From NCBI RefSeq assembly GCF_047607245.1, contig NZ_JASGDK010000070.1, positions 11,610-75,609 on the forward strand: 64,000 bases of DNA. Direction: 5' to 3'. The position numbers were made by a program, and so were the translations under genes. Below, piece by piece: positions 5,982-32,435 of the stretch. The notes under the pieces were generated by a model. That model saw only the letters and a program-made list of their open reading frames with translations, had not been told where the DNA came from and did no database searches. Position 1 is the first letter of the stretch. Every line of letters starts with the position of its first letter. The DNA comes from Desulfovibrio sp. (lineage in GTDB: Bacteria; Desulfobacterota; Desulfovibrionia; Desulfovibrionales; Desulfovibrionaceae).

Positions 5982-5983
5982 AA

Positions 5984-16598: not shown

Positions 16599-18527
16599 TT
16601 ACTGCTGCACGGGCTTCTGCCGCGCCTGCCACCACAGTTGAAAGACCAGCAGCGTCCACAAGGGCTTGCGCAAGTCGGCCCTGCCGGAAATGTGCTCATC
16701 CATAAGGGCGCGCACGGCAACGGGGTCAAAGATCCCCTGGGCCTTGAGGCTGTCTGCGCTGAGCAGGTCTTCCATAAGGGGACGCATACGCCCGCGCAGC
16801 CACTGAGCCACGGGAATCTGAAAACCCCGTTTGTTGCGGTACAAGATTTCTTTGGGCAACAGGCCCGCAAAAGCTTTTTTGAGCAGCCACTTGCGCTTGA
16901 ATCCGTGGAGCTTGCGGTCCACAGGCAGGCGCGCGGCGAATTCGGCCACGTCCTTGTCCAGAAAGGGCGCGCGCACTTCAAGGCTGTGCAGCATGGAGCA
17001 ACGGTCCACTTTGACAAGGATGTCGTCCAGCATGAACTGACGCGCATAAACGTGAAAGGCCCGCGCCAGCGGAGCTGCCGCGCCATACGGCTGCCAGTGC
17101 TCAAACTGCTCGCGCGTAGGAGCAAAAAGACGTTCCGGCGAAAGAACGCCCGGCGCTTGCGCCTTGAAGCTTCCGGTCAGAATTTCCGCCTGCATGTCGG
17201 GGGTAAAGGCTGTGAGCATGGTTTGCACGCGCTGCCAGGCAGGAGCTTGCGCCGCACGCAAAAACGTGGCCACAGCAAGGCGCGGATTGATATATCCGGC
17301 AGACGAAGGCAGGCGGCGGGCAAGGGGCTCCACAATCTTGTTCCGCACCAGCGCGGGCAAGGCATTATACCATTCAGCCACCTTGAAGCCTATGTAATGT
17401 TCGTAGCCAGCCCACAATTCGTCCGCGCCGTCGCCGCCAAGGGCCACAGTGACCTTTTCACGAGTCACGCCCGACAGCAGCCAGGTAGGAGCCACAGAGG
17501 CGTCGGCCATCGGCACGTCCATTCTGCTCACGATTCCCGGCAGATTGTCGGCACACTCCTCGGCAGAAAGCACGCGCTCGTGGTGGTCGGTGCCAAAGGC
17601 CTCGGCCACAATGCGCGCATAGCGCGATTCGTCGTAACTGGCTTCACTGAATCCAATGGAGAAAGTCTTTATGGGTGTGGAAGATTGCCGCGCCATAAGG
17701 CCAGCCACAATGGAAGAATCAATGCCACCCGAAAGAAAGACGCCCAGAGGCACATCGCTGACCATGCGACGCCGCACAGCCCGCGCCAGCAAAAATTGCA
17801 GTTCTTCGCCAAGCTGCTCGGTGCCGCGCCTGTCATTTTCATCAGGCGTGGGCATGTCCCAATAACGGCCAGTGCGCAGGACGCCGCCCTCAAGCAGCAG
17901 CCAATGGGCGGGCGGCAGGCTTTCCACTTCCGCATATATAGTCTGCGGCGTGGGCACATACTCGTAAGCCAGATAGCGCATAACGGCTTCTGGCTGCATA
18001 GTCAGATTCAGGCCGGGTACTTTTTCAAGGGCCGTCATCTCCGAGGCGAAATGCAGCCTGCCCTGCTGCACGGTGTAGAAAAAGGGCTTCTTGCCGAAAG
18101 GATCACGCGCGCAGAAAAGCCGCTGCTGGACAGAATCCCACAGGGCAAAGGCAAACATGCCATTGAAGCGGGCAAGGCAATTCACGCCCCACTGCCGGTA
18201 CCCTTCAAGAATGACTTCCGTATCCGAACTGGTGCGAAAACGCGCGCCGTTGGCTGCAAGTTCTTCTTTCAGTTCCGCAAAATTGTAAATTTCACCATTG
18301 AATATGACCGTATAGCGTTCGTCGACGCTGTGCATGGGCTGCCCGCCCGTGCCCAGGTCAATGATGGAAAGACGCCTGTGGCCCAGGCATACAGGCCCGC
18401 TTAACCATTGCCCTTCGCCATCAGGTCCACGATGGGCGATGCGGTCGGTCATGGCCTTCACCCAGTGAAGGGCCTGGGGGTCAAGCGGCGAGGCTTCCAG
18501 TTGGCAAATACCGGCTATTCCACACAT
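16599..18527 (-). CDS. AsnB-family glutamine-hydrolysing amidotransferase (asparagine-synthase-like)
   Basis: The mature N-terminus MCGIAGI carries the Ntn Cys2 nucleophile, so the start is ATG 18527 rather than 18542. PP-loop FLSGGIDSS. It overlaps the upstream GT4 stop by 13 nt. Confidence 0.85.
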   Translation of the reverse strand: MCGIAGICQLEASPLDPQALHWVKAMTDRIAHRGPDGEGQWLSGPVCLGHRRLSIIDLGTGGQPMHSVDERYTVIFNGEIYNFAELKEELAANGARFRTSSDTEVILEGYRQWGVNCLARFNGMFAFALWDSVQQRLFCARDPFGKKPFFYTVQQGRLHFASEMTALEKVPGLNLTMQPEAVMRYLAYEYVPTPQTIYAEVESLPPAHWLLLEGGVLRTGRYWDMPTPDENDRRGTEQLGEELQFLLARAVRRRMVSDVPLGVFLSGGIDSSIVAGLMARQSSTPIKTFSIGFSEASYDESRYARIVAEAFGTDHHERVLSAEECADNLPGIVSRMDVPMADASVAPTWLLSGVTREKVTVALGGDGADELWAGYEHYIGFKVAEWYNALPALVRNKIVEPLARRLPSSAGYINPRLAVATFLRAAQAPAWQRVQTMLTAFTPDMQAEILTGSFKAQAPGVLSPERLFAPTREQFEHWQPYGAAAPLARAFHVYARQFMLDDILVKVDRCSMLHSLEVRAPFLDKDVAEFAARLPVDRKLHGFKRKWLLKKAFAGLLPKEILYRNKRGFQIPVAQWLRGRMRPLMEDLLSADSLKAQGIFDPVAVRALMDEHISGRADLRKPLWTLLVFQLWWQARQKPVQQ

Positions 18528-19948
18528 GATTCTTTCCAACACCTGTAATTATTGATGAAAACACGCGCCAAGCGGTCATTGTTGGCTTCGGGATCAAACA
18601 TATGGGCCGCCAGCAGCCTGCCGTTACGGGCAAGGCTGGCTGCCAGGGCTGAATCGTTGGCCAGCAGGGCGATAGCGTTGGCCAGCGCTTCGGCGTCGTG
18701 CTGCGGCACCGCCAATCCGGTTTTACCGTGCCGCACCACCTCTGGCAAAGCGTTGACCGTGGTGCTGACTACGGGCAGGCCATAGGCCAATGCCTCGATA
18801 ACGGTATTGGGGATGCCATCGCGCCGGCCCGACGCATGCACCACGCAGGGCGCGGCAAAAATATCATGCTCTTTGAGGAGCTTGGGCAGCTCATTGTGCG
18901 AAATAAGACCGGGCATGCTCACGCGGGCTTCCAGTCCCAGTTCCTTACGCAAACGGGTCAACTCGGCCTGCATGTAGCCGAGGCCCATCACGGCTCCGCC
19001 GCCGCCCGCCAGAGTGAGGGTAAAGTCCAGGCCACGGTCTTGCAGCAAGCCGCAGGCGCGGAGCAATACGTCAAAGCCCTTGGTAACGTCAAACCGTCCA
19101 AGAGCCAGCAGGCGCACAGGGCGCTTCATGGGAACGGGAGAGGCCGAAGCAGGCACTTCATCCAGGCGCAGAAAAGAAGGATCCGCCTCACTGGAGCAGT
19201 GGGAGCCCGGCGCGTCGAGCGCGCCAGTATGGGCGGCAGCGGCTGTGGGCGTGACCGTTTCGTCTTCCAGTGGCGGCAGGGTCAGCCCGTTATACACCAG
19301 CTCAACTTTGCCCTTGGCCTGCCCACGGTCAAAATTCTCTATCCGCGCCTTGTCCGCGCCGTTGTTGGCACGCACCAGAAAAGCGGCGTCAAGCTTTGCG
19401 CCTAGGTCCGGGTCCGCTGGCTCAAGATTGTCGCCCCTGGCGCATGTGGCAAAGGGAAGCCCGGCGATGCTGCCTGCAACCCAGGCAGCGGTTGCAGTGC
19501 CGCGCGGCCAGGGCGCGTAGATCATATCGATGCCCGCTTCTTTGAAGCGCCGGGCCAGATACACCCCTGCGCAAAAAGCCCAGAGGTTTTCTCCCATTGT
19601 TTCAACGCAGCGCCAACGACGGAACATAGTACGACGGAAGAGCCTTCCCAGGCGTAGCGGGTGCGTGCAGAACTGGCGCAGAACTTCGGCCAAGATGGCA
19701 AAAACTGCTTTTGTGCCCAATGTATGGGTCTGCTGGGCCGCCGTGCGCATTTCAGTGGAGCAGTGGCACAAGTTGGCCCCGTAAAGACTGAACACCGAGA
19801 GCGGAAGGCGCTTTCTGAGCCCTTGTACTTCGCGGAAGATAAAGGGCTGTGTGAACAGGGGGTACCACAGCAACACGCAGGCCACATGAGGCAGCCCAGG
19901 GGCGAATGCCTGCGGGGAAACGGACTCGCTTGTCTTGCTTTCTGTCAT
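18515..19948 (-). CDS. GT4-family (GT-B) glycosyltransferase, paralogue 2
   Basis: C-terminal domain RLLALGRFDVTKGFDVLL...RRDGIPNTVIEALAYGLPVVST...GKTGLAV. The N-terminal half is paralogous to 21071-22417 (VLLWYPLFTQPFIFREV vs VLLWFPLSSETFIFREV). Confidence 0.8.
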   Translation of the reverse strand: MTESKTSESVSPQAFAPGLPHVACVLLWYPLFTQPFIFREVQGLRKRLPLSVFSLYGANLCHCSTEMRTAAQQTHTLGTKAVFAILAEVLRQFCTHPLRLGRLFRRTMFRRWRCVETMGENLWAFCAGVYLARRFKEAGIDMIYAPWPRGTATAAWVAGSIAGLPFATCARGDNLEPADPDLGAKLDAAFLVRANNGADKARIENFDRGQAKGKVELVYNGLTLPPLEDETVTPTAAAAHTGALDAPGSHCSSEADPSFLRLDEVPASASPVPMKRPVRLLALGRFDVTKGFDVLLRACGLLQDRGLDFTLTLAGGGGAVMGLGYMQAELTRLRKELGLEARVSMPGLISHNELPKLLKEHDIFAAPCVVHASGRRDGIPNTVIEALAYGLPVVSTTVNALPEVVRHGKTGLAVPQHDAEALANAIALLANDSALAASLARNGRLLAAHMFDPEANNDRLARVFINNYRCWKESCVE

Positions 19949-20033
19949 AACTCACTCCTGAGCGTCTGCCAGGGGGCAAACTCACAGGTTATATTATTTG
20001 GAGTCGACCATACCGAATTGCACGCGGCGCAAG

Positions 20034-21074
20034 CTAGGGAGCTTCTTGTGGCGGATACGCCCAATCGCCGCATTTCGCGCCGCTGCACTGCCGCAATTGT
20101 GCTGCGCTTTCAGGGGCTTGAGGACCCAAGACTTCCCTCAATTGGTCCATAGTCAGGCTGCGCACTTCCCAGCGGGATGAGAGCCAGTCTGTCCAGGCCA
20201 GTATTTTTTTCATAAGTGTGTCCACAGCGCTGGCATCAGGCAGATGGGGCGCACCGCCCGGCATCATTTCTGAAGAATGCCAGGTGAGAGACAATACCCG
20301 CCCTCCGCGGGCCACGAAAAGTCTGGTCACAGCCTGCATGGCCCACAGAGGATGATAGACGGGCAACAAACTCAACGCCCCCCAGTTCTTGAAGCCTGGC
20401 CGCAAGCCCGGAGCCGTTCTGCGCAGCAGGCCCGGCAAGGGTTGCAAAAGAGGCGTCACGCTAAGGGGAACTTCAAAAATACGCTTTGGCCCAACGGTTA
20501 CCCAATAAGGATTGCACGGGGCGTCAAAGTGATCTGGCCCCGCATGAGGCGTGGCTCCACAATGCAGCGGGCGTACCGAGGCGTCTACCTTGATTCCGGC
20601 CTGGGCCAACAGGGGCCAATGGTTTCTGTGCAGATCCCACCGCCCCATACGAAAAGAAGTCAGGGGCGCGGATTGAAATTCCTGTCCGGCAGCCATGAGT
20701 TTTTCAAGCTTGGCGGCCATAAGAAGGTCGGGCACGGCTGCGGCGGGTACACTGGATGCATTGTCGGCAAGGGCGGCGTCTGCGCCCGGCCCGTCAAGAG
20801 TCAGAGGGGGCGTGTTCCAGTGGTGCAGGTGCGCGCCTATTTCAGCGCCGTGTCTGTCGCGCAGCCCCGCCAATACGCGCCGTGAAGGCTCGTCGGCCAG
20901 CACGCTGTGCGCGCAGAAAAGCGTGGGGCGCACGCCGCGCTCACACAGGGGATCAAGCCGCCCAAGGCTGCCTGTATTGACCGTTGAGAAGCCTCGCCGG
21001 GCATACTGGCCGCCAAACAGCCCTTCTTCTTCCACATCCAGGCTGACAGCAAGATAGAGCGTAGGCCGGCTCAT
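20034..21074 (-). CDS. Polysaccharide-deacetylase-like (CE4/WalW-like) protein
   Basis: LAVSLDVEEEG (Asp/Glu metal motif) and IGAHLHHW (His pair). The ATG at 21074 overlaps the upstream TGA (ATGA). The track start 21149 is over-extended. Confidence 0.6.
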   Translation of the reverse strand: MSRPTLYLAVSLDVEEEGLFGGQYARRGFSTVNTGSLGRLDPLCERGVRPTLFCAHSVLADEPSRRVLAGLRDRHGAEIGAHLHHWNTPPLTLDGPGADAALADNASSVPAAAVPDLLMAAKLEKLMAAGQEFQSAPLTSFRMGRWDLHRNHWPLLAQAGIKVDASVRPLHCGATPHAGPDHFDAPCNPYWVTVGPKRIFEVPLSVTPLLQPLPGLLRRTAPGLRPGFKNWGALSLLPVYHPLWAMQAVTRLFVARGGRVLSLTWHSSEMMPGGAPHLPDASAVDTLMKKILAWTDWLSSRWEVRSLTMDQLREVLGPQAPESAAQLRQCSGAKCGDWAYPPQEAP

Positions 21075-22417
21075 GCTTCCTCTTTTTCCGTGAACACATG
21101 ATCCAAGTGGGAGGATTGCCCTTGCTGCATCCTGGCAGCTCGGGCGCATTCATCCACATACAGATCATAAACCGCCGCGATGTTTCGCGCGGGGTCAAAA
21201 AGCTTTTCAACATGGGCGCGCCCCGCCTCAGCCATTTTCAGGGCAGCATCCCGGTCAGACACCATACGGCGCACGGCATCTGCCAGAGCCCGCGGATCGC
21301 GTTGCGGCACAAGCAGCCCGGTTTCACCGTCAATAACTACCTCGGCTATGCCGCACACATCGGTGGCAATAACTGGCATCCGGTGAGAAAGCGCTTCCAT
21401 GATAACATTGGGGATGCCATCGCGATCTCCGTTAGTGTGCACCACGCTGGGCATGATGAGCATGTCATGGTCCAGCATGAACGCGCAGATCTTGTCGTGA
21501 GGAATAAACCCCGGCATATCGACAACCTGTGTAAGCCCCAGATCGTCCCGCATTTTGACAAGCTTGTGATGCCACCTGCCGTCGCCCACCAGAGTCAGGG
21601 TCACAGGCACGTTTTCACGCCGCAGCCGTGCCATTGCCGTGAGCAATTCGGGAAAGCCCTTGGTGCGCGCAAAGCGTCCCACTGCAAGCAACCTGTAGGG
21701 AGCCTGCATGGGCATGGCGCACTGGCCGCGCGGTCGGAAGGTAAGACTATTGTAGATGGCGTGTACTTTGTTCGTGGCGTCAGGAGGGCAGAACTTGCAC
21801 AGCCACTGTACATTGGTGCGGTTATTGGTGCGGACGAAAAGCGCGTCGCGCGATTTTTCCCGCAACAGACCATCTTCAGGATAAATATCTCCGGCACGCC
21901 CAGTGAAGGCAAAGGGGATGCCCGACATGCGCGAGGCTACCCAGGCTGCAGTTGCCGGCCCATTGGCCCAACCCGCATGGATAAGCTGCACCCCGTCCTG
22001 CCGGCACTGCTCGGCCAGCAGGAATCCCGCCAGAAAACACAAGGTGTTCTCTGCAATAGCCTCAACATTGCGCATACGGCGAAAAAGCCCTTCACGCATG
22101 AGCCGCCACACCGCCCCCGGCTTCTGCCACAAGGCACGCCCGAAGGCAGCAAGGATGCGGCTGAAGGCCTTGATGCCCATGCGGCGGACAGGACCGTCAA
22201 AGGCGTGCATTTCTTCGCTGCACCCCTTGAGATTTTCGCCATACATGCTGTACGCATACACAGGCAGGCCACGCTGTCTGAGTTGTACGACCTCACGAAA
22301 AATAAATGTCTCAGAAGACAATGGAAACCAGAGAAGCACATAGGCGATGACCGGCGGAACACTCTGCCGACCGTTTTCCTTTCCCGCTTCCGTGGCAACG
22401 CCACTGGTTAAAGACAT
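21071..22417 (-). CDS. GT4-family (GT-B) glycosyltransferase, paralogue 1
   Basis: RLLAVGRFARTKGFPELL...DRDGIPNVIMEALSHRMPVIATDVCGIAEVV.DGETGLLV. Confidence 0.8.
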   Translation of the reverse strand: MSLTSGVATEAGKENGRQSVPPVIAYVLLWFPLSSETFIFREVVQLRQRGLPVYAYSMYGENLKGCSEEMHAFDGPVRRMGIKAFSRILAAFGRALWQKPGAVWRLMREGLFRRMRNVEAIAENTLCFLAGFLLAEQCRQDGVQLIHAGWANGPATAAWVASRMSGIPFAFTGRAGDIYPEDGLLREKSRDALFVRTNNRTNVQWLCKFCPPDATNKVHAIYNSLTFRPRGQCAMPMQAPYRLLAVGRFARTKGFPELLTAMARLRRENVPVTLTLVGDGRWHHKLVKMRDDLGLTQVVDMPGFIPHDKICAFMLDHDMLIMPSVVHTNGDRDGIPNVIMEALSHRMPVIATDVCGIAEVVIDGETGLLVPQRDPRALADAVRRMVSDRDAALKMAEAGRAHVEKLFDPARNIAAVYDLYVDECARAARMQQGQSSHLDHVFTEKEEA

Positions 22418-22474
22418 ATCGGTCTCCGCAGCAAACGAGAGCCGGGCCTTATGGCCCGGCCCTAAATGCTGTTT

Positions 22475-23794
22475 TTATTCGCCCAGGTATTCTTCGGCGT
22501 GTTCGCTCTTGTATTTTTCCACAATGGCCTGTGCCTTGGGAATTTCTTCCTTCACGGCATCCAGAGCCTTGCGGATGTGCTCTTCGGTATGGGCGGCAGA
22601 AAGGAAGAAGCGCAGCCTGTCGGTGCCTTCTTTCACTGCCGGGAAGGTAATGGGCATGACATAGATGCCACGCTTGAAGAGCGCGTTGGACAGGAAGCCT
22701 GCAACCATAGGATCGCCCACCATAACAGGCACGATGGCGTAGCCCTGAGCCGCGCCTGTGTCCAGACCGATGCTGGCGGCGTAATCCACAAAGAACCGGG
22801 AAATGCCCTGCAATTTATGCACACGTTCCGGTTCGCGCAGCATAATGTCCAGCGCCTTGTGGCAGGCCACGGCGATCACGGGGGGCATACCCACACTGAA
22901 AACAAAACCCGGCGAACCGTACTTCAGAAATTCCACCAGTTCGTGCTTGCCAGCGATAAACCCGCCGCAACCGCACATGGACTTGGAGAGCGTGCTCATC
23001 CACATATCCACTTCATTGGCGTCAATGCCGAAATATTCGTGCGCGCCACGCCCGGTCTTGCCAAGCACGCCCAAAGAATGGGCTTCGTCAACCAGCAGCA
23101 TGCAGTCGTACTGCTTTTTCAGCTGGATGATGCGGGGCAGATCAGGAATGTTGCCGTCCATGCTGAACAGGCCTTCCGTAACGATAATGGCCCGCTTGTG
23201 TTCGGCGCGCTTGGCCTTGAGCATTTCCTCAAGGGCATCGCAATCGTTATGATTGTACGAGTAGCGCGCGGCGTGCGACAGGCGTGCGCCCTGCACCAGC
23301 GAGTTGTGGGCCAGGCCGTCATGAAAAATGGCGTCGCGGTGGCCGAGCAGAAAGCCGAGGGTGGACACGTTGGTGGCATGCCCGCTCACGTAGACAATGC
23401 AGTCTTCCACGCCATAAAGGTCGGCGAAGGCACGCTCAAGCTCACGGTGCGGCGGGCGCTCGCCGCCCACAAGGCGGCTGGCTCCGGCGGACGTGCCGTA
23501 AACGGTGGCGGCGCTGGTGACGGCCTCGGTTATTTCCGGATGGGCGTTAATGTCCAGATAGTCGTAGGTGGAAAAGTTCAGATATTCCTTGCCGCCAATG
23601 AGTGTGGTAGCCTTGGCTGCACGCTCGTGGCAAAGAAAAAGAGGATTTTCCATCCCCATCTTGGCTCCCATCTCCACAAGCCGGTCAAAGGCGAGCTTGG
23701 AACGCATGCGGCTGAAGCCGCCTGCGGAGCTTTCTGTAGCGGCAGTAGTTGATGCCGCCTCTTGTCCAGCCTGACAGGAATGGTCGTTCTTCAT
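22475..23794 (-). CDS. PLP-dependent alpha-oxoamine synthase (SPT/BioF/KBL/CqsA superfamily acyl-thioester:amino acid C-acyltransferase)
   Basis: Motifs YLNFSTYDYL, GASRLVGGE, SGHATN, SMDGN, VDEAHSLG and STLSKS (PLP Lys271 codon at 22984-22982). AAGAGGA RBS before ATG 23794. Low-complexity 29-aa N-terminal extension. Confidence 0.85.
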   Translation of the reverse strand: MKNDHSCQAGQEAASTTAATESSAGGFSRMRSKLAFDRLVEMGAKMGMENPLFLCHERAAKATTLIGGKEYLNFSTYDYLDINAHPEITEAVTSAATVYGTSAGASRLVGGERPPHRELERAFADLYGVEDCIVYVSGHATNVSTLGFLLGHRDAIFHDGLAHNSLVQGARLSHAARYSYNHNDCDALEEMLKAKRAEHKRAIIVTEGLFSMDGNIPDLPRIIQLKKQYDCMLLVDEAHSLGVLGKTGRGAHEYFGIDANEVDMWMSTLSKSMCGCGGFIAGKHELVEFLKYGSPGFVFSVGMPPVIAVACHKALDIMLREPERVHKLQGISRFFVDYAASIGLDTGAAQGYAIVPVMVGDPMVAGFLSNALFKRGIYVMPITFPAVKEGTDRLRFFLSAAHTEEHIRKALDAVKEEIPKAQAIVEKYKSEHAEEYLGE

Positions 23795-24142
23795 GCCTAA
23801 TCCTCTTAAATTTGTCCAAAAAATGCACCGGCCCGCAGCCCTGCAACAAGCAGCCGGACAGAGGGCGCAACTTTGTAAGGATTCAGTATAGCCAAACCGT
23901 CGAGCTATGGCAAGTGCGTAATATCAAATCCTCATCAACCCGCCACAGCGGCAGCTACTGTGCATTTCAGGGCTTTTACAACCGCCTTTCAACGCAAATG
24001 CGCACGGCGGCATTCCGCTGCCGTGGCCTATTTTCTGCCCGGCTTCTGGACAAGAGAATCGATATACCCTAGAATACCGCCCTTAGCCGATATATGCCGC
24101 TTCGGCCCAATCGATCAACCGCGCGCCGCAGGCCCGAGTTTT

Positions 24143-27100
24143 ATGCAGCAAGACCCTGCCCCAGCATACGGCACTTCGCACGGCAAGCCCTGCGCAACGG
24201 ACAACGCCGTCCTTCAGGACGGACTGCTTGTTGTGTCGCCTCCTTGCGCCATCCTTTCCTGCCCTGCTCCTGAAAATCCGGCCTCTGCCGAATCCCGCGC
24301 TTCTTCAGGCGAAATATGCGCCCAGGCTCTGGTTCGCCAGTGCCTTGACTGGCTCAAGCTTACCGGAAACCCTGGCCCCGTCATGCTCTGGCTCTGCTGG
24401 AACGAGTCCAGCACTCCGGCCCATCTGGCCCAATCCCTGAGTCTTGCTGCGGAAGGTCTGCAAAATCTCTGGCGCATCGGTCCGGTACGCCTGCAGTTTG
24501 AATCCTTCCGCCCCGGCCAGATTCACGAGGCCGAAAAGGTTCTGCGAGCGGCCCTTGATCAAGGCACGGATGCAGCAAAAAGCATTTACCCCTGCATGAC
24601 CAACGAGGCGGCCCGCCCAGATACTATGGGTGTGAGCATGCCGCAGTGCCCCAACTACTATAATTCCGATGCGAATAGAGCGCTGGGCGACGAAGAACCC
24701 ATGCGCCCGCAAGCCGGACGCGTGCCCACCATTCTTTTGCTGGATTTTTTGGCAGATAAAACTCCGAACCTGCAGTGCCAGCCTCTTCTGCTGAGCCTGC
24801 CTGCTCCTACGCCTCCGTGCTGCGACATGCTCAAATGCCGCAAGAATCCACAGCAGGTGACAGAGGAGCCCCGGCCCGAAACCGCGCCAGCCCTCTGGCA
24901 GCCCTGCAACCTTGCAGCCGAAGCAAAGCATATCCAAGCAACTGCTACAGACACCACAAAAATGCCCGATTATCAAAATTTGCCCGAAGAACTTATTCTG
25001 GATGGCGTACGCTACGCTGACCTGCCCCAAGACGGCATTATGTGGCGTATGGGAACCACCAATCCCCTATGGCGGCAAGACCTGCTCTCGCTGCCGCACA
25101 ATCCCGATGCAGCAGCCCTGGCGAGTCTTGAAGGGCGCGGCATCTGGCTGGCCCCCAAGACCGATGCGCCGCCCCTGGCAGTCATGTGCTGCGGCATGGG
25201 CTCGGTCTGGCCGGGCATGGGCCGCGAACTCTACGATAATTTCCCTGTGGCGCGCGCCGCGATGGACCGCATCGCCGCTGTTGCCGATTGGGACATACTT
25301 GGCCTTATGGACGAAAAAGACGTGGAAAAGGTCAGCCCCACACGCTGGCAGTCTCCTTACACGTTTATGCTTGAGTTTGCGCAGTGGAGCATACTTTCTT
25401 CACTGGGTCTGCAGCCCTCGCTCTTCTGCGGGCACAGTCTGGGCGAGCTGATTGCCCTGTGCTTCAGCGGCATCTACACGCCCGAGGTGGCCTGGCATAT
25501 TCTTGATACCCGCGCCATCCACATGGCCGAACTGGAAGCTGCTGCCACCCGTGAAATGGGCATGATGGCCGTACACGCCAACGCTGAAATCATTGATGAA
25601 GCATGCGCTGCATGGCCCGCCCTCTACGTTTCCAACTACAATACTCCGCAACAATTTATTCTGAGCGGACCGCGCGAAGTATTGATGGAAGCCCGCAAAA
25701 GCCTGCGCAAGCGCCGTATACCTGCCATCGTGCTCAACCTGAATCTGGCCTTCCATCATCCAAGCATGCGTGTGTTGCGCGACCTTTCGCTGCGCCGCCT
25801 CAACGCGCTTGAGATGCGCGCTCCCCGCCACCCCATGCTGAGCGGCACCACCACGGATTTTTATCCTGACGACCAGCCATCCATCTGCCTGCAAATCGCC
25901 GACCTGGATGAAAATTCCGTCCGCTGGACAGAATGCGTGCACACGACATGGCGCAGAGACGGCATCCGTCACTTTCTGGAGCTGGGACCGCAGGATACAC
26001 TGTGCAGTCTTGTCAGCGACACGGAACCCCGGGCCCTTTGCCTGCCTGCGGGACGCAAGGGCAAGGAAGTGGAAGGCATGCGTCAGACATGCGCCCGCCT
26101 CTATGCGCTGGGACACTTGCGCAAAAATTCTATCCGCACACGCATCGCCGATGTTCGCGGCGGCAAAGATGCTGCCGCAGCAGCGCGTATGCCGCTTCCG
26201 CATTGTGGGCTTGTGCCTGTGGATTCCCCCGACTGCGGCGCAGGCTGCGGGACATGTTCCACTTCTTCCTGCGGCATAACCGCCACAGAAACCTCGCCGG
26301 TAAAAACAGATGCCGTGGTTTCTGCCCCTGTTTCCGGCGCAGACGCTGCGTCCGCCCCTGTGAAAGCTACGGCTTCCGTATCATCCGCAGCCGCCTTGCG
26401 CGTGGTGCTGGATGTTCTGGCCCGCGCCTGCGGCCGCCCCGTGGAAGAACTGCGGCCAGACCTTGACCTGCGCTACGATCTTGCCCTGCGCTCCAGCCGT
26501 TTTCCCCTTATTATTCAGGAAGTGGAAAAAGCGCTGGATATTACCGTCAACTTTGAAGATCTGCTGCAGGTTTCCACAGTGGGCGATCTCGCTCGCGTTC
26601 TGGGCGCAGTCAATTTTGGCGAAACGGCCGATTCCGAAAAATCCGGGGCGGCAAGTCAGGTGGCAGCTCGCCAGACAGCGCTGGTTCATGCTTGCGCGCC
26701 GCTGTGCCGCTTCAGCCCCATGCGGGGGAGTGCGCAAAGCGAACACACGGCAAAGGCCGGCAGTGGGGGGGCGACACATGCCCTGCTGCCGCTGCCTCTG
26801 GACCCCTGCGGTCAGGGCTTGCCCATCCGGCGAGGGGATATTCTGGCCCTTCTGTTTTTTGAACCTGATCTGCTGCCCGCTCTCATGAGCGGCCTGGCAC
26901 CACTTGGATGCGTGCTGGCCGTGCCGCGCGCCCAGGTTGAAGCATGCGCCCCGCTGGCCAAGGCGGGCAGCCGCATTGTGCCCCTGAATATTGACCTACA
27001 CGCCCCTCGGAATGCCGCAGAGGCACGTTCGTTGGCCGAAGATACCAGCGCGGCCCTGAGCGATCTGGCTAAAAAAGAGGGCAAGGTTGACGGCCTGCTT

Positions 27101-28528
27101 TTTGTGCCTGCCGCACGTTCCGAAAAAGGAGAAAAGGAAACCGGCCCGGCACTTTCAGCCGCCGCCTTTGCCTCCGCAGACATGCCCGAGTTGCTGAGCG
27201 CGGCCATGCGAGTCACCGTGCCGCACGGGCTGCGCTATGCCTGCCTGTGCAGTCTGCTGCAACCCACGGCTGAAAACCTGCGCGGCGATGGCCCGCTGGA
27301 AAAGCGCCTTGAGGAACTGGGGCAGGAAGCTGGCGTTGCCACCCGCGCCATCCGGCTTCTGGAAAAAAATCTTCGCGCAGGACTTAACGACTGGGGCGAT
27401 ATGCTGGCCCGTGAACTTTTACGCGGCACCGCCTGCCAGGTGCTGTGGGTACGGCCCACGGCCCTGCCCGCTTTTGCAGCGCCCGCTGACCAGGCAGACA
27501 GCTGCTCCCACGCATCTGCTGCGCAAGAGAAGAAGGGGCAAGGGCTCATCATCACGGAAAAACCGCGCTTCTATCCCCTGGTTTTTTCCGATCCGTATCC
27601 GCCTTACCGGGCCACTTCCACGCTTTTTCAGGGCTGCTGCCATTACTCGCGGTTTGCCGATACCGATCTGGCCCTTCATGGCGGCCAACCTTGTAATACC
27701 CTTGACGGTACGCCCTGGTTACCTCCAAGCCGTGCCCTGGCGGCCTTGCTTGAAGCCTCAAGCTTATGGCTTCCCTGGCTAACAGCCACTGGTTTTTCAG
27801 ACCTGCGGTTTTATGATCTTCCCCAGCTGCCGCCCGGCATCACCCGCGAATGCAGGGTCGCTATGGAGGCAGAGCCCTGGCTCATGCAGGACGGCGTAAT
27901 GACGCGCCAGTGCCGCGGCACTCTGGACGTACGCGGACTTTCAGCCAATGGCAGACATCTTGAGCGCTATGCGCCCGTGGCTGAAGGCATGACCATTCTG
28001 GCCGCGGCCAACGGGCAGGTGCCGCCCCTGTGGCCTGATGAAAATGAACCCCCGCGTGCGGAACAAATTCAACAGACCTTAGATACCGATCTTTTTTATA
28101 ATTCTGTAGGCTTTGGCGCGCCCTGGCGCATGCTACGCGAGTTTACCGTTCTGCCTAATCACAGATATGCCGCGCTGTTGGACCATTCGCATACAAGCAT
28201 TGCCCCCGAGGGCAATAAAGGCTATACTGACGTACTGCATGTGGTGGAGGGAATGGCGCAGGCCGCGTGGATGGCAATTGCCCAGGAAGCCGGAGAGGCA
28301 GAGGCGATTGCCGCTGTCATACGAAACTGGCATCTGCAGGCTGCGGGATTCATACGTTTTGGGGGCGAAAGAGGCAAAGGACCGTGGCTCATAAGGATGA
28401 GACGTTCTTGGTCTGCCCCAAATCTGTTGCGCTTTGACGGCCAGGCCGTTGACGAACGCGGACGCGTCTTTCTTACTCTCCATCATCTAGAGTTTAACCG
28501 GCGGGACACCGGAGCCGCCGCGCTTTAG
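24143..28528 (+). CDS. Multidomain PKS-like protein without ketosynthase: unknown N-domain, acyltransferase (AT), carrier-protein-like domain, unknown middle region, double-hotdog dehydratase-like domain
   Basis: AT: GMGSVWPGMG...GHSLGE (Ser codon 25436-25438)...LAFHHP. ACP-like: LDLRYDLALRSSRFPLIIQEVE (26492-26494). DH-like: LALHGGQPCNTLDGTPWLPPS and YTDVLHVVEGMAQ. The start is uncertain: ATG 24143 is preferred, and the track's GTG 23960 adds a basic, non-protein-like leader. Confidence 0.8.
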   Translation: MQQDPAPAYGTSHGKPCATDNAVLQDGLLVVSPPCAILSCPAPENPASAESRASSGEICAQALVRQCLDWLKLTGNPGPVMLWLCWNESSTPAHLAQSLSLAAEGLQNLWRIGPVRLQFESFRPGQIHEAEKVLRAALDQGTDAAKSIYPCMTNEAARPDTMGVSMPQCPNYYNSDANRALGDEEPMRPQAGRVPTILLLDFLADKTPNLQCQPLLLSLPAPTPPCCDMLKCRKNPQQVTEEPRPETAPALWQPCNLAAEAKHIQATATDTTKMPDYQNLPEELILDGVRYADLPQDGIMWRMGTTNPLWRQDLLSLPHNPDAAALASLEGRGIWLAPKTDAPPLAVMCCGMGSVWPGMGRELYDNFPVARAAMDRIAAVADWDILGLMDEKDVEKVSPTRWQSPYTFMLEFAQWSILSSLGLQPSLFCGHSLGELIALCFSGIYTPEVAWHILDTRAIHMAELEAAATREMGMMAVHANAEIIDEACAAWPALYVSNYNTPQQFILSGPREVLMEARKSLRKRRIPAIVLNLNLAFHHPSMRVLRDLSLRRLNALEMRAPRHPMLSGTTTDFYPDDQPSICLQIADLDENSVRWTECVHTTWRRDGIRHFLELGPQDTLCSLVSDTEPRALCLPAGRKGKEVEGMRQTCARLYALGHLRKNSIRTRIADVRGGKDAAAAARMPLPHCGLVPVDSPDCGAGCGTCSTSSCGITATETSPVKTDAVVSAPVSGADAASAPVKATASVSSAAALRVVLDVLARACGRPVEELRPDLDLRYDLALRSSRFPLIIQEVEKALDITVNFEDLLQVSTVGDLARVLGAVNFGETADSEKSGAASQVAARQTALVHACAPLCRFSPMRGSAQSEHTAKAGSGGATHALLPLPLDPCGQGLPIRRGDILALLFFEPDLLPALMSGLAPLGCVLAVPRAQVEACAPLAKAGSRIVPLNIDLHAPRNAAEARSLAEDTSAALSDLAKKEGKVDGLLFVPAARSEKGEKETGPALSAAAFASADMPELLSAAMRVTVPHGLRYACLCSLLQPTAENLRGDGPLEKRLEELGQEAGVATRAIRLLEKNLRAGLNDWGDMLARELLRGTACQVLWVRPTALPAFAAPADQADSCSHASAAQEKKGQGLIITEKPRFYPLVFSDPYPPYRATSTLFQGCCHYSRFADTDLALHGGQPCNTLDGTPWLPPSRALAALLEASSLWLPWLTATGFSDLRFYDLPQLPPGITRECRVAMEAEPWLMQDGVMTRQCRGTLDVRGLSANGRHLERYAPVAEGMTILAAANGQVPPLWPDENEPPRAEQIQQTLDTDLFYNSVGFGAPWRMLREFTVLPNHRYAALLDHSHTSIAPEGNKGYTDVLHVVEGMAQAAWMAIAQEAGEAEAIAAVIRNWHLQAAGFIRFGGERGKGPWLIRMRRSWSAPNLLRFDGQAVDERGRVFLTLHHLEFNRRDTGAAAL

Positions 28529-28596
28529 CGCGTCTCCGCCACAGTGACAGTGACTATACCAACGCGCAAAGTGCGCGACATTGTAAAGGGTGCCTG

Positions 28597-30063
28597 ATGC
28601 CGCATAACACACGTCCTCTCTTTTCAGCGCGGTCATATCTGCCGCTGCTGCTCGTTATGACCCTGTTTTTCTCAGCATGCGCCTCAAACAAGGCGGGACT
28701 GAAATCTCCGGAACTTCCGGCCAAGCACTGGCTGGAAGAGGCACCCGGCGTTCCGGTAGAAAACAAGGCCAAACTTGAAGCGGCAGTGCCCAACCTGTAT
28801 GATCCCAGCAAGGTTTTCACCTACGAGGACTGCGTCTTTCTGACCATTCAGCAGTCGCCCCTTCTGGTCAACAGCGCGGTAGATCTGGAGATCAAGCGCG
28901 TAGCCCTTACCGACGCCGTGTGGAAGTACCTGCCCGAGCCCCGTATGACCATGCAGGTCACCAACAACCTTACGCGCAACAACATGGACCACAAGGACAC
29001 CCCTGGCGACTACGGGCGTACCAAGTTCACCGTGGGTTTCTATGCGGCCTTCCCCAATCCTGTGGCCACCTATTTTGAGCACCAGGTGCAAAAGGCAATG
29101 GTCAATCTGGCCATCTCCACGCACCGCAAGGCTGTGGGCGAAGCCATCTACAAGATCGCCCAGGCCTATCTGCAGCTGCAGGCGCAGAAAAAAATCGTCA
29201 AGGTTCAAAAAGAACTGCTGCCCATCGGCAAAGAACTCATAGCCTACTGGCAGCAGGTGGAGTCCGTAGACGGCCGCCAGGGGGTTTCCCTCAACTTGGC
29301 CATGCAGCACCAGCGTGAGCTTGAGCTGATGGTAGAGCAGACCAAGATGAAGGAAGTCATGCAGCTCACCCAGCTGAAAATACTCGCGGGTGTGGACCCG
29401 CAGCACAAGCTGGACGTAGACACGTCAAGCGCTGACGAAATTCTGAAAGGCTTCAATGGCCGCAGCCTCAAGTGGGACGACCGCTGGAATACCACTGAAG
29501 ACGATTTGCTTTTGCGCGGCCAGATCAAGCTGGGTGACTACAATATCATGGTCGCCTGGGCTCAGTATCTTCCAAACATGAGCATCGCCGTCAACAACAG
29601 CCCGCCAGCGGGCCAGTACCAGCCTGCCAGCGGCAGTGAAGACACCTTCCTGCATCTGAACTTTGACTTTCCCCTGCTGGACTGGGGACGCCGTTACCGT
29701 GGCGTGCAGACGGCACGCATGATGAAGGCGCAGGCTTTCCACGAAATGGCCCGCAAGCGCACAGATTATTCCAACAAGTGGCTGCAGGCGGAACAGAACG
29801 TGGCACTGGCTGAAACCGAGCTCAAAATCGCGAAAACGCGTTTTGACACTGCGGCCATGCAGTACAAGGAAGCCCACATTTCCTTCAACGAAGGCATTGC
29901 GGATCTGCCCAACGTAGCCGACAGGCAGGAAGCTATGGTGCAGGCCCAGATCGCTTTTATTCGGGCAGAACTGACCTGTGAACTGGCTCAGCTTGAATGG
30001 ATGTACATTTCCACCTCGCTTCAAGAACGTTTCCTCGGCATGCCCGCCAAGGAGGTGCTGTAA
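28597..30063 (+). CDS. Outer-membrane efflux protein (TolC/OprM-like) lipoprotein
   Basis: Signal peptide and lipobox (LLLVMTLFFSAC). Size and repeated helical/beta layout fit outer-membrane factor proteins, with long heptad-rich stretches. Confidence 0.7.
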   Translation: MPHNTRPLFSARSYLPLLLVMTLFFSACASNKAGLKSPELPAKHWLEEAPGVPVENKAKLEAAVPNLYDPSKVFTYEDCVFLTIQQSPLLVNSAVDLEIKRVALTDAVWKYLPEPRMTMQVTNNLTRNNMDHKDTPGDYGRTKFTVGFYAAFPNPVATYFEHQVQKAMVNLAISTHRKAVGEAIYKIAQAYLQLQAQKKIVKVQKELLPIGKELIAYWQQVESVDGRQGVSLNLAMQHQRELELMVEQTKMKEVMQLTQLKILAGVDPQHKLDVDTSSADEILKGFNGRSLKWDDRWNTTEDDLLLRGQIKLGDYNIMVAWAQYLPNMSIAVNNSPPAGQYQPASGSEDTFLHLNFDFPLLDWGRRYRGVQTARMMKAQAFHEMARKRTDYSNKWLQAEQNVALAETELKIAKTRFDTAAMQYKEAHISFNEGIADLPNVADRQEAMVQAQIAFIRAELTCELAQLEWMYISTSLQERFLGMPAKEVL

Positions 30064-31010
30064 TGGCGCCCTATTCACGCATCGCCTCTTCGGCCCGCAA
30101 GTGCGCGCTAGGCATTGCCGTGGCATTTCTGGCCAGTCTGACTCTTGCCACCGCTGGCTTTGCGGCCGACAGCGGAAAAATTGGCGTGACCATTCTTACA
30201 GGCAAAGTCGTGACGACAGTCACCCGGGCCGTGCCCATGCCCTTTAGCGGCGTGGTGGACTCAGTACTGGTCAAACCCGGCGAAGCAGTTGAAGAAGGCG
30301 CGCCTCTCATGCGCTACCACCTATACGAAGATGCGGAACGCGCCCTGCAACGGGAAGTCATGCAAGGCCCCAGCACAGAAGGCCTCAACGGGCAGGTGCT
30401 GGACCTTGAGCGCAGACTTGCTGAAACCATTGCCCAGCGTAACAAGGCCCGTCAGCTTGCAGCTTCGGGCCTGGGCTCGCGTCAGGCTTCCGGACGTCTT
30501 GAAGAAGACGTGAGCTCCCTGCAACGCCGCATTGAGCTCACGCGTACTACCATAAAGAAAGCTGAAAACAGCTTTGCCATCCGCCTCAAGGAACTGAGCA
30601 GCTATTTCGGACAGGAAATCAAGGAAGGGGAAATTCTGCCAGAAACCCTGACCCTGACCTCGCCTCTCAAGGGCTATGTGCTATCGCTGGATGCCACGCT
30701 CAACCCCGACACTCTGCTTCCGGCGGGCAGCGTTCCCATCAGAGTGGGGCAGCTTGACCCTGTGCTTATTCAGGTGCCCGTCTACGAAGCCGAAGTCAGC
30801 GGCATCAGCGAGGGCGACAAGGTTGCGGTAGAAATCCCCTCTCTCAACAACAAGGTCTTTACGGGCAAGGTTACAGAAATATCTTGGGTTTCCAGCGATA
30901 TGAGCGTGTCCAACCCTTCCTACTACACTGTGGAAATCACCGTGCCCAACCCGGATCTGGAGCTTAAACCCGGCTTCAAGGCTGTTGTGCGTTTCGGGGG
31001 CGGCAGGTAA
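30063..31010 (+). CDS. Periplasmic adaptor / membrane-fusion protein (HlyD family)
   Basis: The start overlaps the upstream stop (TAATG). N-terminal anchor/signal, a split lipoyl-like domain (GVVDSVLVKPGEAVEEGAPLM ... LTSPLKGYVLSL), a central coiled coil and a C-terminal beta-barrel (GFKAVVRF). Confidence 0.75.
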   Translation: MAPYSRIASSARKCALGIAVAFLASLTLATAGFAADSGKIGVTILTGKVVTTVTRAVPMPFSGVVDSVLVKPGEAVEEGAPLMRYHLYEDAERALQREVMQGPSTEGLNGQVLDLERRLAETIAQRNKARQLAASGLGSRQASGRLEEDVSSLQRRIELTRTTIKKAENSFAIRLKELSSYFGQEIKEGEILPETLTLTSPLKGYVLSLDATLNPDTLLPAGSVPIRVGQLDPVLIQVPVYEAEVSGISEGDKVAVEIPSLNNKVFTGKVTEISWVSSDMSVSNPSYYTVEITVPNPDLELKPGFKAVVRFGGGR

Positions 31011-31019
31011 AGCCCCCGC

Positions 31020-32435
31020 ATGAAGCTCAAGAGCATTCCCCGCAGGCTCGGTTACATTCTAGGCGCGCAGTGGACGCGCGACCTGGCCTGGACAGCCTTT
31101 ACCATTCTGCTTGCCCGCCGCAGCCCGGATATTATGGGGCAGGTGGTCTTGGCCCTCACTTTCGGCTATCTGGTTAAGACCATTGCTGATGTGGGTCTCA
31201 ATGATTTTCTGTTGTCTACCTTTGCCAGGCGGGAAGGCCGGCCACGGGCTTTGCTGGGCGAAGTAACATGGCTCAAGCTTACCGTGCTGGTGCTGGCTCT
31301 GGCTGTAACATGGCTGGTAACCGGATGGCAGAATTACAGCCCTGAGCTGCGCCTTATCGTGCTGTGTATTGCCGCAGGGCTTGGCCTTGACGGGGTGAGT
31401 GACTCATTTTTCGCGCTATGCCAGGCTCGAGGCCGACAGGATGTGGAAATGCGCATCCGGGTGCCCTCTGCCCTCATCGGCATAGGCTTCGGTATCGCCT
31501 GCGTAGTTATGGGCGCGCCGCCCATTATCATCGCACTTTACAAACCCATTGAATCTATACTGTGCATCATTTTTGCCCTCACAGCGCTTGGCCGCAACCC
31601 GCTGGCGGGTGTTGGCCGATCTGGCATGCTCGATCTGGCGCGGCAAATGAAGCATGGCCTTATCTTTACCTGCATGGCCGCCTGCGCCATGTTCTACAAC
31701 AAAATCAACGTCATTTTTCTCAAGCAGTACGGCGGCAACGCCGATGTGGGCGGGTACGGAGTAGCCTGGGAGACCGTGGAAGGGCTTTCGGTTCTGGTAT
31801 CAAGCGCACTTCTGGGCAAGGTTATTTTTCCTCTGCTGGCAAAATTCTGGCAGCAGGATAAAAATGCCTTCCGGCAGCTTGCTGGCCAGACTGCCCGGTC
31901 TTTGTGGGCCGCCTCCTTGCCCATCATCTTTCTCATTTGTGTGGAAAGTGACCGGTTTCTGCCTTTTATTTACGGCCCAAGCTATGAGAGCGCCGTTCGG
32001 GCGCAGCAATTGCTGACGCCTTGCCTGGCTACTGCCTTTCTGCACAACCTTGCAGCCTATGCTATGATAGGCATGCGCCGCCATCGCCTTCTGCTGCTTT
32101 TCTACGTCAGCGGGCTTATTCTTAATATTATCTGCTGCCTGACGCTTATCCCGGCCATGCCTCTTGAAGGTGCGGCGCTGTCTCTTACCATCACCAAGGT
32201 TTGGGTTGCCATCCTTACTGTGGGCTTTTTTCAGTGGACAACCCGCCCGATGAGTGCGGCACAATGGCTGCTCATGCTGGCTACCGCTGGAGTAAGCATT
32301 GCGTTGTGGTGGGGCACAGGCAAAGTTGCCCCTCGTGAAGTTGCTGAAGGCGTGGGGCTTCTTCCTCTGCTGGCCTTGTTCTGGTGGTGGCGGCCTCCCC
32401 CGCCATTTGAAAAAAAGACGCCGCAAGCTCAATAG
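31020..32435 (+). CDS. MOP-superfamily flippase (Wzx / polysaccharide biosynthesis protein-like, ~12 or more TM)
   Basis: A polytopic membrane protein of 471 aa whose N-terminal region (GAQWTRDLAWTAFTILLARRSPDIMGQV) resembles oligosaccharide flippases. It starts 9 nt after the adaptor stop. Confidence 0.7.
   Translation: MKLKSIPRRLGYILGAQWTRDLAWTAFTILLARRSPDIMGQVVLALTFGYLVKTIADVGLNDFLLSTFARREGRPRALLGEVTWLKLTVLVLALAVTWLVTGWQNYSPELRLIVLCIAAGLGLDGVSDSFFALCQARGRQDVEMRIRVPSALIGIGFGIACVVMGAPPIIIALYKPIESILCIIFALTALGRNPLAGVGRSGMLDLARQMKHGLIFTCMAACAMFYNKINVIFLKQYGGNADVGGYGVAWETVEGLSVLVSSALLGKVIFPLLAKFWQQDKNAFRQLAGQTARSLWAASLPIIFLICVESDRFLPFIYGPSYESAVRAQQLLTPCLATAFLHNLAAYAMIGMRRHRLLLLFYVSGLILNIICCLTLIPAMPLEGAALSLTITKVWVAILTVGFFQWTTRPMSAAQWLLMLATAGVSIALWWGTGKVAPREVAEGVGLLPLLALFWWWRPPPPFEKKTPQAQ

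Follow-up and report, generated by a model that had tools for sequence, protein, structure and literature searches.

The subject of this analysis is a nine-gene locus in a 64,000-nucleotide stretch of Desulfovibrio sp. DNA (contig NZ_JASGDK010000070.1 of assembly GCF_047607245.1), which we refer to as the window. Five genes on the minus strand, encoding an alpha-oxoamine synthase (AOS), two family 4 glycosyltransferases (GT4 a and GT4 b), a 346-aa protein with a predicted CE4-like fold and an AsnB-type amidotransferase, diverge from four genes on the plus strand, encoding a 'megaprotein' with acyltransferase (AT) and acyl carrier protein (ACP) domains, a TolC/OEP-family outer-membrane factor (OMF), a membrane-fusion protein (MFP) and a MOP-superfamily flippase (Table 1). 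The AOS and the carrier-domain megaprotein are divergent neighbours, and the pair is kept in all loci. A preliminary description, made from the letters alone, had called these nine genes and arranged them in two divergent operons. An open reading frame (ORF) check of the window found all nine at exactly the coordinates then listed, and the gene junctions were verified as exact: the ATGA overlap, the 13-nt overlap, the TAATG overlap between the OEP and MFP genes, and the 348-bp divergent spacer. Profile hidden Markov model searches of the nine proteins, with Pfam and NCBIfam, likewise confirmed most of the family assignments.

Table 1. Features of the locus; positions are counted from the first nucleotide of the window
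Feature	Position	Strand	Basis or remark
AsnB-type amidotransferase	16599-18527	-	642 aa, starts MCGIAG, Cys2 nucleophile
GT4 glycosyltransferase b, accessory	18515-19948	-	Glycos_transf_1 + Glyco_trans_1_4 (Pfam)
346-aa protein, CE4-deacetylase-like predicted fold, accessory	20034-21074	-	AF2 + Foldseek
GT4 glycosyltransferase a, core	21071-22417	-	Glycos_transf_1 119 bits
Alpha-oxoamine synthase (AOS), 439 aa	22475-23794	-	Aminotran_1_2 160 bits
AOS pyridoxal phosphate (PLP) lysine K271 (STLSKS)	22982-22984	-	Alignment to KBL
Divergent control region, 348 bp	23795-24142		Promoter-like sites, palindrome
Megaprotein with Acyl_transf_1 and PP-binding domains	24143-28528	+	Pfam
Megaprotein N-terminal extension, ~280 aa, A/P/L/Q-rich	24143-24979	+	Matches no family
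Ketosynthase (KS)-AT-linker remnant and AT domain	24980-26179	+	Acyl_transf_1 105 bits
AT active-site Ser (GHSLGE)	25436-25438	+	Motif
Carrier (ACP) domain	26384-26602	+	PP-binding 31.6 bits, cut-off 20.8
Candidate phosphopantetheine Ser (LALRSS) of ACP	26492-26494	+	Motif
Degenerate ketoreductase (psiKR)	26777-27469	+	Rossmann-like fold in AF2 model
Double-hotdog dehydratase-like domain (DH)	27602-28504	+	Fold in AF2 model + homology
TolC/OEP-family OMF, probable lipoprotein	28597-30063	+	OEP 86 bits
Membrane-fusion / periplasmic adaptor protein (MFP)	30063-31010	+	HlyD_D23 + HlyD_3
MOP-superfamily (Wzx-like) flippase	31020-32435	+	Polysacc_synt_3 66 bits, Polysacc_synt 40 bits

The megaprotein had been described as a KS-less AT-ACP-DH protein. 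Its lack of a KS and the pairing of a carrier protein with a dedicated AOS both stand, but a degenerate ketoreductase (KR) and the N-terminal extension had been overlooked; alignments and the predicted structure together indicate the order N-terminal extension, AT, ACP, dead KR and DH. The AF2 model, which covers residues 280-1461 (pLDDT 79, pTM 0.74), contains in this order a linker with the AT, a small helical ACP, a Rossmann-like domain and a double hotdog. In a Foldseek search with this model, about 1200 columns aligned to whole polyketide synthase (PKS) structures (Pks16, PsoA and CalA3, the last with the order KS-AT-DH-KR), and the AT matched PKS AT and FabD structures with TM values of 0.65-0.89. 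The NCBIfam matches of the AT include omega_3_PfaA. Searches of Pfam, NCBIfam and the PDB with the C-terminal half of the megaprotein gave nothing significant, and the best PDB match obtained with either this half or the 346-aa protein had an E value of 0.025.

The conservation of catalytic motifs was counted over 23 sequences, reaching down to 39% identity. The GHSLGE and AFHH motifs of the AT and an Arg at +25 from the Ser are invariant (23/23), as is the Ser of the ACP (LRSS), a domain that forms a helical bundle in the AF2 model. The GQG motif of the AT, which is present in all the proteins that have a KS (KS+), is replaced by G(L/M)G in 17 of the 23 KS-less sequences, a hint of an altered AT pocket or specificity. 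For the DH dyad, the His is retained in 19/23, the acid (E/D) in 21/23 and the Gln in 22/23. The DH of the window protein has no PS-DH match in Pfam; its assignment is supported by the modelled double hotdog and by homology to the PS-DH domains of two relatives, P0309 and P0308. No Pfam match to KR or adh_short was found in the window megaprotein. The KS+ proteins with an intact KR possess both the GGxxGI motif and the SS...GQxNYxAAN catalytic segment. When they are aligned with the KS-less proteins, GGxxGI is seen to be replaced by an LLFFEPDLLP-type sequence in every one of the latter, the window's included, and the segment bearing the catalytic Tyr is deleted in all of them. A KR altered in this way is predicted to be dead.

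The megaprotein is under purifying selection in every domain, most strongly in AT-ACP. Comparison of the window protein with five relatives, domain by domain, gave the lowest dN/dS ratios in the AT (0.08-0.14) and ACP (0.08-0.18), followed by the DH (0.14-0.21), the psiKR (0.20-0.29) and the N-terminal extension (0.20-0.35). This extension, for which no family match was found, is missing from most homologues, which are 1105-1180 aa long. The idea that the N-terminal 285 aa are a remnant of a KS was rejected: BLASTP found no similarity to KS, and the hhalign probability was 0.35%.

The origin of this arrangement can be traced through its relatives. A phmmer search of 1.8 billion representatives with the 608 residues that follow the ACP returned only 105 matches, three of which are proteins of 1645-1815 aa with the Pfam architecture KS-AT-ACP-KR-DH. 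Over linker-AT-ACP the window megaprotein is 47-60% identical to such relatives, and over KR-DH about 28% (28% to P0294). The relatives P0294 and P0309 carry an intact KS, whereas the megaprotein has no KS match in Pfam. Two metagenome contigs (L085:1-14964 and L086:1-12048) hold orthologous loci in which the KS-AT-ACP-KR-DH protein is intact, with lengths of 1815 and 1782 aa, respectively. The gene order in L085 is CE4-like gene, GT4, AOS and a small ORF, followed divergently by the PKS, OEP, MFP, MOP and RlmN genes; its proteins are 53-74% identical to their window counterparts, and the RlmN flank is common to several Desulfovibrio loci. L086 resembles L085, but two polytopic membrane proteins (555 and 395 aa) replace the MOP flippase. 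No family matches were obtained for these membrane proteins or for the small ORFs of L085. A further protein, P0315 (L084:180-5117), with an OEP gene downstream and an AT 60% identical to the window's, is an apparent evolutionary intermediate in the decay of KS and KR: its KS carries an internal deletion and a Cys in place of the first catalytic His (ECCASGT), and its KR is without the catalytic Tyr.

Since KS+ orthologous loci exist with the same neighbours, the window megaprotein is best explained, on sequence comparison and modelling, as a derivative of a PfaA/PKSE-type module that has lost its KS. The earlier statement that the locus fits no canonical PKS is correct in that the KS is absent, but the logic is still that of a PKS, in the form of a decayed PfaA/PKSE-type module, as L085, L086 and P0315 illustrate.

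A wider type of cluster was also seen in Desulfuromonadales, Geobacterales and other metagenome-assembled genomes (MAGs), represented by L049:1915-18342, L050:430-18356, L087 and L088. L049 encodes an AOS-like enzyme that has 32% identity to the window's, a synthase of ~2660 aa with the order ER(NMO)-KS-AT-ACP-ACP-KR-DH, a phosphopantetheinyl transferase (PPTase) and ABC-2 transporter proteins. The same synthase type occurs in L088 together with MFP, MacB and OEP genes, and without a called AOS gene, and in L087 a Bac_transf priming transferase lies beside the AOS. The L049 type of cluster appears to be uncharacterised. Envelope exporters are a recurring theme among AOS/PKS clusters, and the KS+ orthologous loci, taken with the AOS, synthase and exporters of the L049-type clusters, argue that the ancestral product was a chain-bearing amphiphile. 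Two kinds of stand-alone protein were considered and set aside. The stand-alone KS proteins nearest to the L085 KS, candidates for KS partners acting in trans, proved to belong to ER-KS-AT... genes of L049-like clusters that had been called in fragments, and a stand-alone DH-like match (P0301) lies on a 1.3-kb contig, without gene context.

The family placement of the AOS rests on NCBIfam model scores and on the ranking of PDB matches. It scores 347.5 bits against bioF (TIGR00858; cut-off 426.45), 323 against KBL (cut-off 460), and 290, 252 and 195 against the serine palmitoyltransferase (SPT) models (cut-offs 640, 500 and 670), so that by these scores it would belong to no curated subfamily (BioF, KBL or SPT). 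With all SPT models below their cut-offs, the sphingolipid-like reading of the AOS as an enzyme of SPT type is not upheld. Its best PDB match is the Thermus BioF/KBL enzyme, with KBL next, followed by SPT, BioF, cysteate acyltransferase, ALAS and CqsA. The alignment with KBL and the Thermus enzyme extends over the full length of the AOS, and His163, Asp236, His239, Lys271 and Arg393 match the catalytic residues of KBL. The AOS is also the most conserved gene of the locus (74-82% identity across loci), which fits a dedicated, constrained role rather than biotin synthesis.

GT4 a is 60-66% identical in all loci, KS+ L085 included, and GT4 b is missing in L006, a locus described below. Both enzymes score best against the exopolysaccharide (EPS) models EpsE, WcaL and stp2, all below cut-offs; the EpsE-like match of GT4 a has 157 bits, and GT4 b falls below every NCBIfam cut-off. 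The 346-aa protein had been called a CE4-like deacetylase. No sequence match was found for it in Pfam (Polysacc_deac_1 included), NCBIfam or the PDB, but the predicted fold does best match CE4 enzymes: with an AF2 model of pLDDT 81 and pTM 0.85, the top Foldseek matches were 3rxz, 3qbu, 3s6o and ArnD (8t0j), at E values of 3e-8 to 5e-6 and moderate TM values of 0.4-0.6. ArnD acts on a lipid-linked sugar. Invariant residues of the 346-aa protein include D13-V-E-E-E, H82/H84, R142 and H266. In the public records (NCBI), its homologues (P0128, P0153, P0197 and others) are named 'glycosyl transferase family 1' and have no GT match in Pfam; this name has probably been transferred by mistake from the genes next to it.

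The amidotransferase matches Asn_synthase (355 bits) and GATase_7/6 in Pfam and passes TIGR01536, the generic glutamine-hydrolysing asparagine synthase model (526.7; cut-off 267). Its top model, the XrtA/PEP-CTERM amidotransferase TIGR03108, gives 592 bits, short of the 816.9 required by its cut-off, and no exosortase was encountered. The gene is present in all the loci examined whose contig reaches that far, including those with only a seven-gene core. AsnB-type enzymes with a Cys2 nucleophile transfer ammonia to a carboxylate, and since the window enzyme has the Cys2 glutaminase nucleophile, it should do the same.

On the export side, the OMF is conserved in all loci and has a signal sequence that closes with a lipobox-like FSAC, its Cys being residue 28. 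A single hydrophobic segment is present near the N-terminus of the MFP, which also gives a weak match to the DevB-family model (35 bits, below cut-off). The flippase has many transmembrane segments and is 67-77% identical across loci. It is the only polytopic inner-membrane protein of the plus-strand operon, as in all the Desulfovibrio loci, and no ABC, RND or MFS pump accompanies the MFP and OMF in the operon. MOP flippases normally handle undecaprenyl-diphosphate (undecaprenyl-PP)-linked glycans, and we know of no documented machine composed of a MOP flippase, an MFP and an OMF.

Conservation of the nine genes across Desulfovibrio had been named beforehand as a check on the locus, and the gene order did indeed prove to be shared. 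Homologues of the megaprotein were sought in a collection of 5.8 billion proteins; those with a named source are nearly all from Desulfovibrio (one is labelled only 'Deltaproteobacteria') and are 37-91% identical. The nine-gene order is kept in Desulfovibrio sp. 86 (megaprotein 71% identical), in an uncultured gut Desulfovibrio (57%), in a relative whose megaprotein is 37% identical and in another in which the C-terminal half of the megaprotein is ~35% identical, and the flanking genes are often the same among the syntenic loci. Locus size and content are fixed across species. A seven-gene core, in which GT4 b and the 346-aa protein are missing, is found in an abundant gut lineage (L006, 4083 member sequences). 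There, the genes beside the core (L006:1910-4625) encode a CesT-type chaperone and a protein of the IpgD family (inositol phosphatase effector-like), which were unexpected in Desulfovibrio.

In a taxonomic scan of one genome per GTDB species, the full-length megaprotein was confined to Desulfovibrio/Desulfovibrionaceae, barring two oddly labelled contigs, and its ORF is intact in about 48 species representatives. The carriers include D. piger, D. falkowii, D. desulfuricans MAGs and Ca. D. kirbyi, as well as MAGs from rumen, termite and chicken. The two exceptions (L038 and L039) are Desulfovibrio-type loci on contigs filed as Odoribacter splanchnicus and Bulleidia sp. 'cleanbin' assemblies, for which mis-binning is more likely than horizontal transfer. 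The locus is vertically inherited within Desulfovibrio in the strict sense.

The divergent spacer holds candidate control elements. In a promoter scan of 16000-33600 (17.6 kb), scored as the number of matched positions in a 12-position sigma-70-like consensus, the best score (10/12) was reached by three sites, 24047-24075 (+), 23913-23885 (-) and 16454-16427, and the first two of these lie back to back inside the spacer. The position of the site at 24047-24075 favours ATG 24143 over GTG 23960 as the start of the megaprotein. Just upstream of this site is a palindrome (24003-24025) with 9-bp arms, CACGGCGGC-ATTCC-GCTGCCGTG, which is also the best terminator-like hairpin of the 16000-33600 scan and could serve as an operator or form a hairpin in the leader. 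The 57 nt that separate the stop of the AOS gene from the start of the GT4 gene (22418-22474, minus strand) contain a GC-rich hairpin (GGGCCGGGCC..GGCCCGGC); it could act as an attenuator or mRNA stabiliser that sets the ratio of AOS to tailoring enzymes.

The locus is flanked by unrelated housekeeping genes, encoding an M48 peptidase, a DVU2496_C-domain protein, molybdate-related proteins, a ferredoxin, ArgJ and EF-G. A MoeA-N domain fused to a PBP-like domain (9745-11748, 667 aa) and a tandem TOBE protein (13804-14232) form a molybdate- or molybdopterin-related neighbourhood that has no relation to the locus. Further away, a run of minus-strand genes (2852-9670) encodes a PALP enzyme, a 326-aa protein, a HAD hydrolase, a hexapeptide acyltransferase, a CTP_transf_3 cytidylyltransferase, an NAD epimerase/dehydratase and an HpcH/HpaI aldolase. 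Its content suggests the synthesis of a CMP-linked (activated) sugar or acid, and it might supply sugar to the GT4s, but it lies 7 kb away.

The window as a whole was also searched for genes that would place the locus in a known pathway, and here the preliminary description, which had reported no KS, ABC/RND or Wzy/Wzz/Wza genes, was borne out. No KS is encoded anywhere in the 64 kb by tblastn, and among the ~50 window ORFs scanned with Pfam there is no ABC, RND, Wzy, Wzz or Wza family, no priming transferase, and no acyl-ACP synthetase, ceramide synthase or 3-keto reductase; the last three are also lacking in the syntenic loci, but could be encoded in another part of the genome.

Starting from the observed domain content, KS/KR decay, catalytic-residue conservation, synteny and purifying selection, we tentatively favour a reading in which the locus builds and exports a glycosylated amino-lipid-like metabolite, either displayed on the surface or secreted. 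The AT would load its own in-cis ACP. With the KS lost, chain building would take place in trans, and the most plausible agent is the housekeeping type II fatty-acid synthase, acting on the dedicated ACP; otherwise, the ACP would carry only what the AT loads. The AOS would then carry out a PLP-dependent decarboxylative Claisen condensation of an amino acid with the ACP thioester, giving an alpha-amino ketone and freeing the carrier. The core GT4 would glycosylate this amino ketone and, in the nine-gene version, the second GT4 would add another sugar and the CE4-like enzyme would remove an N-acyl group. The glutamine-dependent AsnB-type enzyme would amidate a carboxylate, the MOP flippase would move the product across the inner membrane, and the MFP and OMF lipoprotein would carry it to or through the outer membrane. 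In this scheme, we infer that ACP and AOS are coupled, and likewise the source and length of the chain, the amino acid, the sugars, the order of the steps and the destination. There is precedent for parts of it. Acyl groups are taken off a carrier by AOS domains or enzymes in SxtA, PigH/RedL, fumonisin Fum8 and bacterial SPT, the last with a dedicated ACP, and housekeeping fatty-acid synthases elongate on specialised ACPs such as AcpXL.

A number of points weigh against such a lipid. The locus contains no chain-elongating enzyme and there is no KS within 64 kb, and the AT has retained the Arg and AFH motifs that characterise transferases of malonyl type. The simplest prediction from a malonyl-type AT without a KS is malonyl-ACP and a short amino-oxo acid, and not a lipid; a lipid product requires either type II fatty-acid synthase elongation on the ACP or a changed AT specificity. 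No N-acyltransferase (ceramide synthase), ketoreductase or PPTase was found in the window. By the curated models the AOS is outside the lipid-specific SPT family, the CE4 assignment comes from a moderate fold match (TM 0.4-0.6), and the acceptor of the GT4s is presumed. Finally, the MOP flippase is of a kind that usually serves undecaprenyl-PP-linked glycans, and its joint action with the MFP and OMF is, to our knowledge, without documented precedent.

Several of these points are accommodated by a short-chain product, an explanation that we regard as unlikely, but as the foremost of the rivals. Here the AT would load malonate only, and the AOS would give a small amino ketone or a 4-amino-3-oxo acid, to serve as a soluble metabolite or signal; CO2 would be removed, by a logic like that of SxtA, by the hotdog domain or in the AOS step, and AsnB-type amidation, glycosylation and secretion would complete the route. 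All the ATs compared share GHSLGE, the Arg at +25 and AFHH with malonyl transferases, neither the locus nor the window has a KS, and the enzymes nearest to the AOS, KBL and BioF/KBL, use short or dicarboxylic acyl groups. The AsnB-type enzyme requires a carboxylate, which a malonyl-derived product would supply, and the chemistry has precedents in SxtA and in MadA, a hotdog malonyl-ACP decarboxylase. However, a flippase, two GT4s of membrane-associated type, an MFP and an OMF would be unusual for a small polar metabolite. The ancestral or sister version, with its full KS-KR-DH set, implies a role in chain building, and the change of GQG to G(L/M)G in 17/23 KS-less ATs hints at an altered pocket. 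Less probable again is a surface oligosaccharide, in which the GT4s, CE4-like enzyme, amidotransferase and flippase act on an undecaprenyl-PP-linked glycan primed elsewhere, and the AOS and AT-ACP protein supply only an unusual acyl or amino substituent for one of its sugars. The best-scoring models of the amidotransferase (XrtA/PEP-CTERM) and the GT4s (EpsE, WcaL, stp2), although all below cut-offs, point in this direction, as do the membership of the flippase in Polysacc_synt_3 and the Bac_transf protein beside the AOS in L087. Yet neither the locus nor the syntenic loci examined hold a priming phosphoglycosyl transferase, Wzy, Wzz/Wza or nucleotide-sugar gene, the fixed size and content of the locus across species are unlike those of variable glycan loci, and an OMF and MFP pair is no part of Wzx/Wzy pathways.

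Two further explanations were rejected. It is very improbable that the megaprotein is a decaying remnant, non-functional after the loss of KS and KR, with the tailoring and export genes serving another substrate. Such decay would account for the lost KS, the dead KR, the damaged KS (His to Cys, deletion) of the intermediate P0315, and the C-terminal half of the megaprotein being its fastest evolving part; but every domain has a dN/dS within 0.08-0.35, ~48 species representatives possess an intact ORF, and the AT and ACP catalytic residues are invariant down to 39% identity, on which grounds a pseudogene relic was discarded. The preliminary description had asked that biotin synthesis be excluded, with the AOS as the organism's BioF and the AT-ACP protein supplying pimeloyl-ACP, as Desulfovibrio bio clusters carry fatty-acid-type genes. 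We give this almost no credence. Whilst bioF is the best-scoring NCBIfam model and the AT Arg would suit a dicarboxylic acyl group, the 347.5 bits fall short of the bioF cut-off, neither the scanned window ORFs nor the syntenic loci include a bioA, bioD or bioB, and the AOS, which is tied to the locus in each of the genomes examined, invariably occurs with GT4, flippase and exporter genes in a locus limited to one genus-level group.

If the product is indeed a glycosylated amino lipid, a more specific proposal can be made, although we consider it doubtful in this full form: a new class of exported single-chain glyco-amino-lipid made by gut-type Desulfovibrio, that is, a glycosylated sphingoid-like base without N-acylation, assembled on a self-loading relic-PKS carrier that borrows the fatty-acid synthase, and exported by a trans-envelope machine of MOP flippase, MFP and TolC-like lipoprotein. 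KS+ strains would then be expected to make a C2-longer, unsaturated version, and a MOP-MFP-OMF trio, if it acts as one machine, would represent a new class of inner-membrane partner for tripartite exporters. The natural series from intact through damaged to absent KS and KR, in which a PKS module decays into a self-loading carrier for a PLP enzyme, is in itself unusual. The main gut sulfate reducers of humans and animals are Desulfovibrio in the strict sense, such as D. piger, D. desulfuricans, D. falkowii and relatives, which have repeatedly been linked to inflammation. A surface or secreted glyco-amino-lipid would be a candidate host-interaction molecule, for which Bacteroides sphingolipids are the precedent.

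Full-text literature searches returned no description of the locus or of a Desulfovibrio AOS/PKS glycolipid. Judged by its genes, the locus appears to be neither a bacterial sphingolipid pathway nor a functional PKS module, a Wzx/Wzy locus, a PEP-CTERM locus or a canonical tripartite pump, defining features of each having been looked for and not found. With the PfaA/PKSE synthases (PUFA-synthase-like 'secondary lipid' PKS) the megaprotein shares the order AT-ACP-KR-DH, in which the ACP precedes the KR. It differs in having no KS, a KR without the NADPH motif and Tyr, and a single ACP, and the locus encodes no PfaB/C/D partners and no PPTase. The bacterial sphingolipid pathway (Spt, ACP, acyl-ACP synthetase, bCerS and CerR) also places a carrier next to an AOS, but the AOS here is outside SPT, and the acyl-ACP synthetase, ceramide synthase and reductase are missing from the scanned window ORFs and the syntenic loci. 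The likeness to Wzx/Wzy and XrtA/PEP-CTERM EPS loci lies in the MOP flippase, the EpsE/WcaL-like GT4s, the amidotransferase nearest to TIGR03108 and the deacetylase-like protein; in contrast to those loci, the present one lacks a priming transferase, Wzy, Wzz/Wza, an exosortase and a PEP-CTERM protein, and the specific models score below their cut-offs. Tripartite exporters combine an OMF and MFP with an ABC, RND or MFS protein, whereas here the MOP flippase is the only inner-membrane candidate partner.

Two systems offer the closer parallels. Carrier-dependent off-loading by AOS enzymes, as in SPT with ACP, SxtA, PigH/RedL and the fungal Fum8/SphA, resembles the locus in having a dedicated AOS beside a carrier, here as a conserved pair. 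Unlike those systems, the AOS of the locus is a separate protein outside the curated subfamilies, and its carrier would be loaded by an AT, in place of an acyl-ACP synthetase or a KS upstream. The cyanobacterial heterocyst glycolipid system (Hgl PKS, HglT, the DevBCA MFP-ABC exporter and HgdD TolC), by which a glycolipid is deposited outside the outer membrane, has the same combination of PfaA-like synthase, glycosyltransferase, MFP and TolC-type channel; it differs in its ABC transporter, where the locus has a MOP flippase, and in belonging to an unrelated taxon, and the AOS step and the KS-less synthase set the locus apart from it. By analogy with both, the locus may be viewed as carrier-dependent AOS off-loading joined to a heterocyst-like arrangement for glycolipid export.

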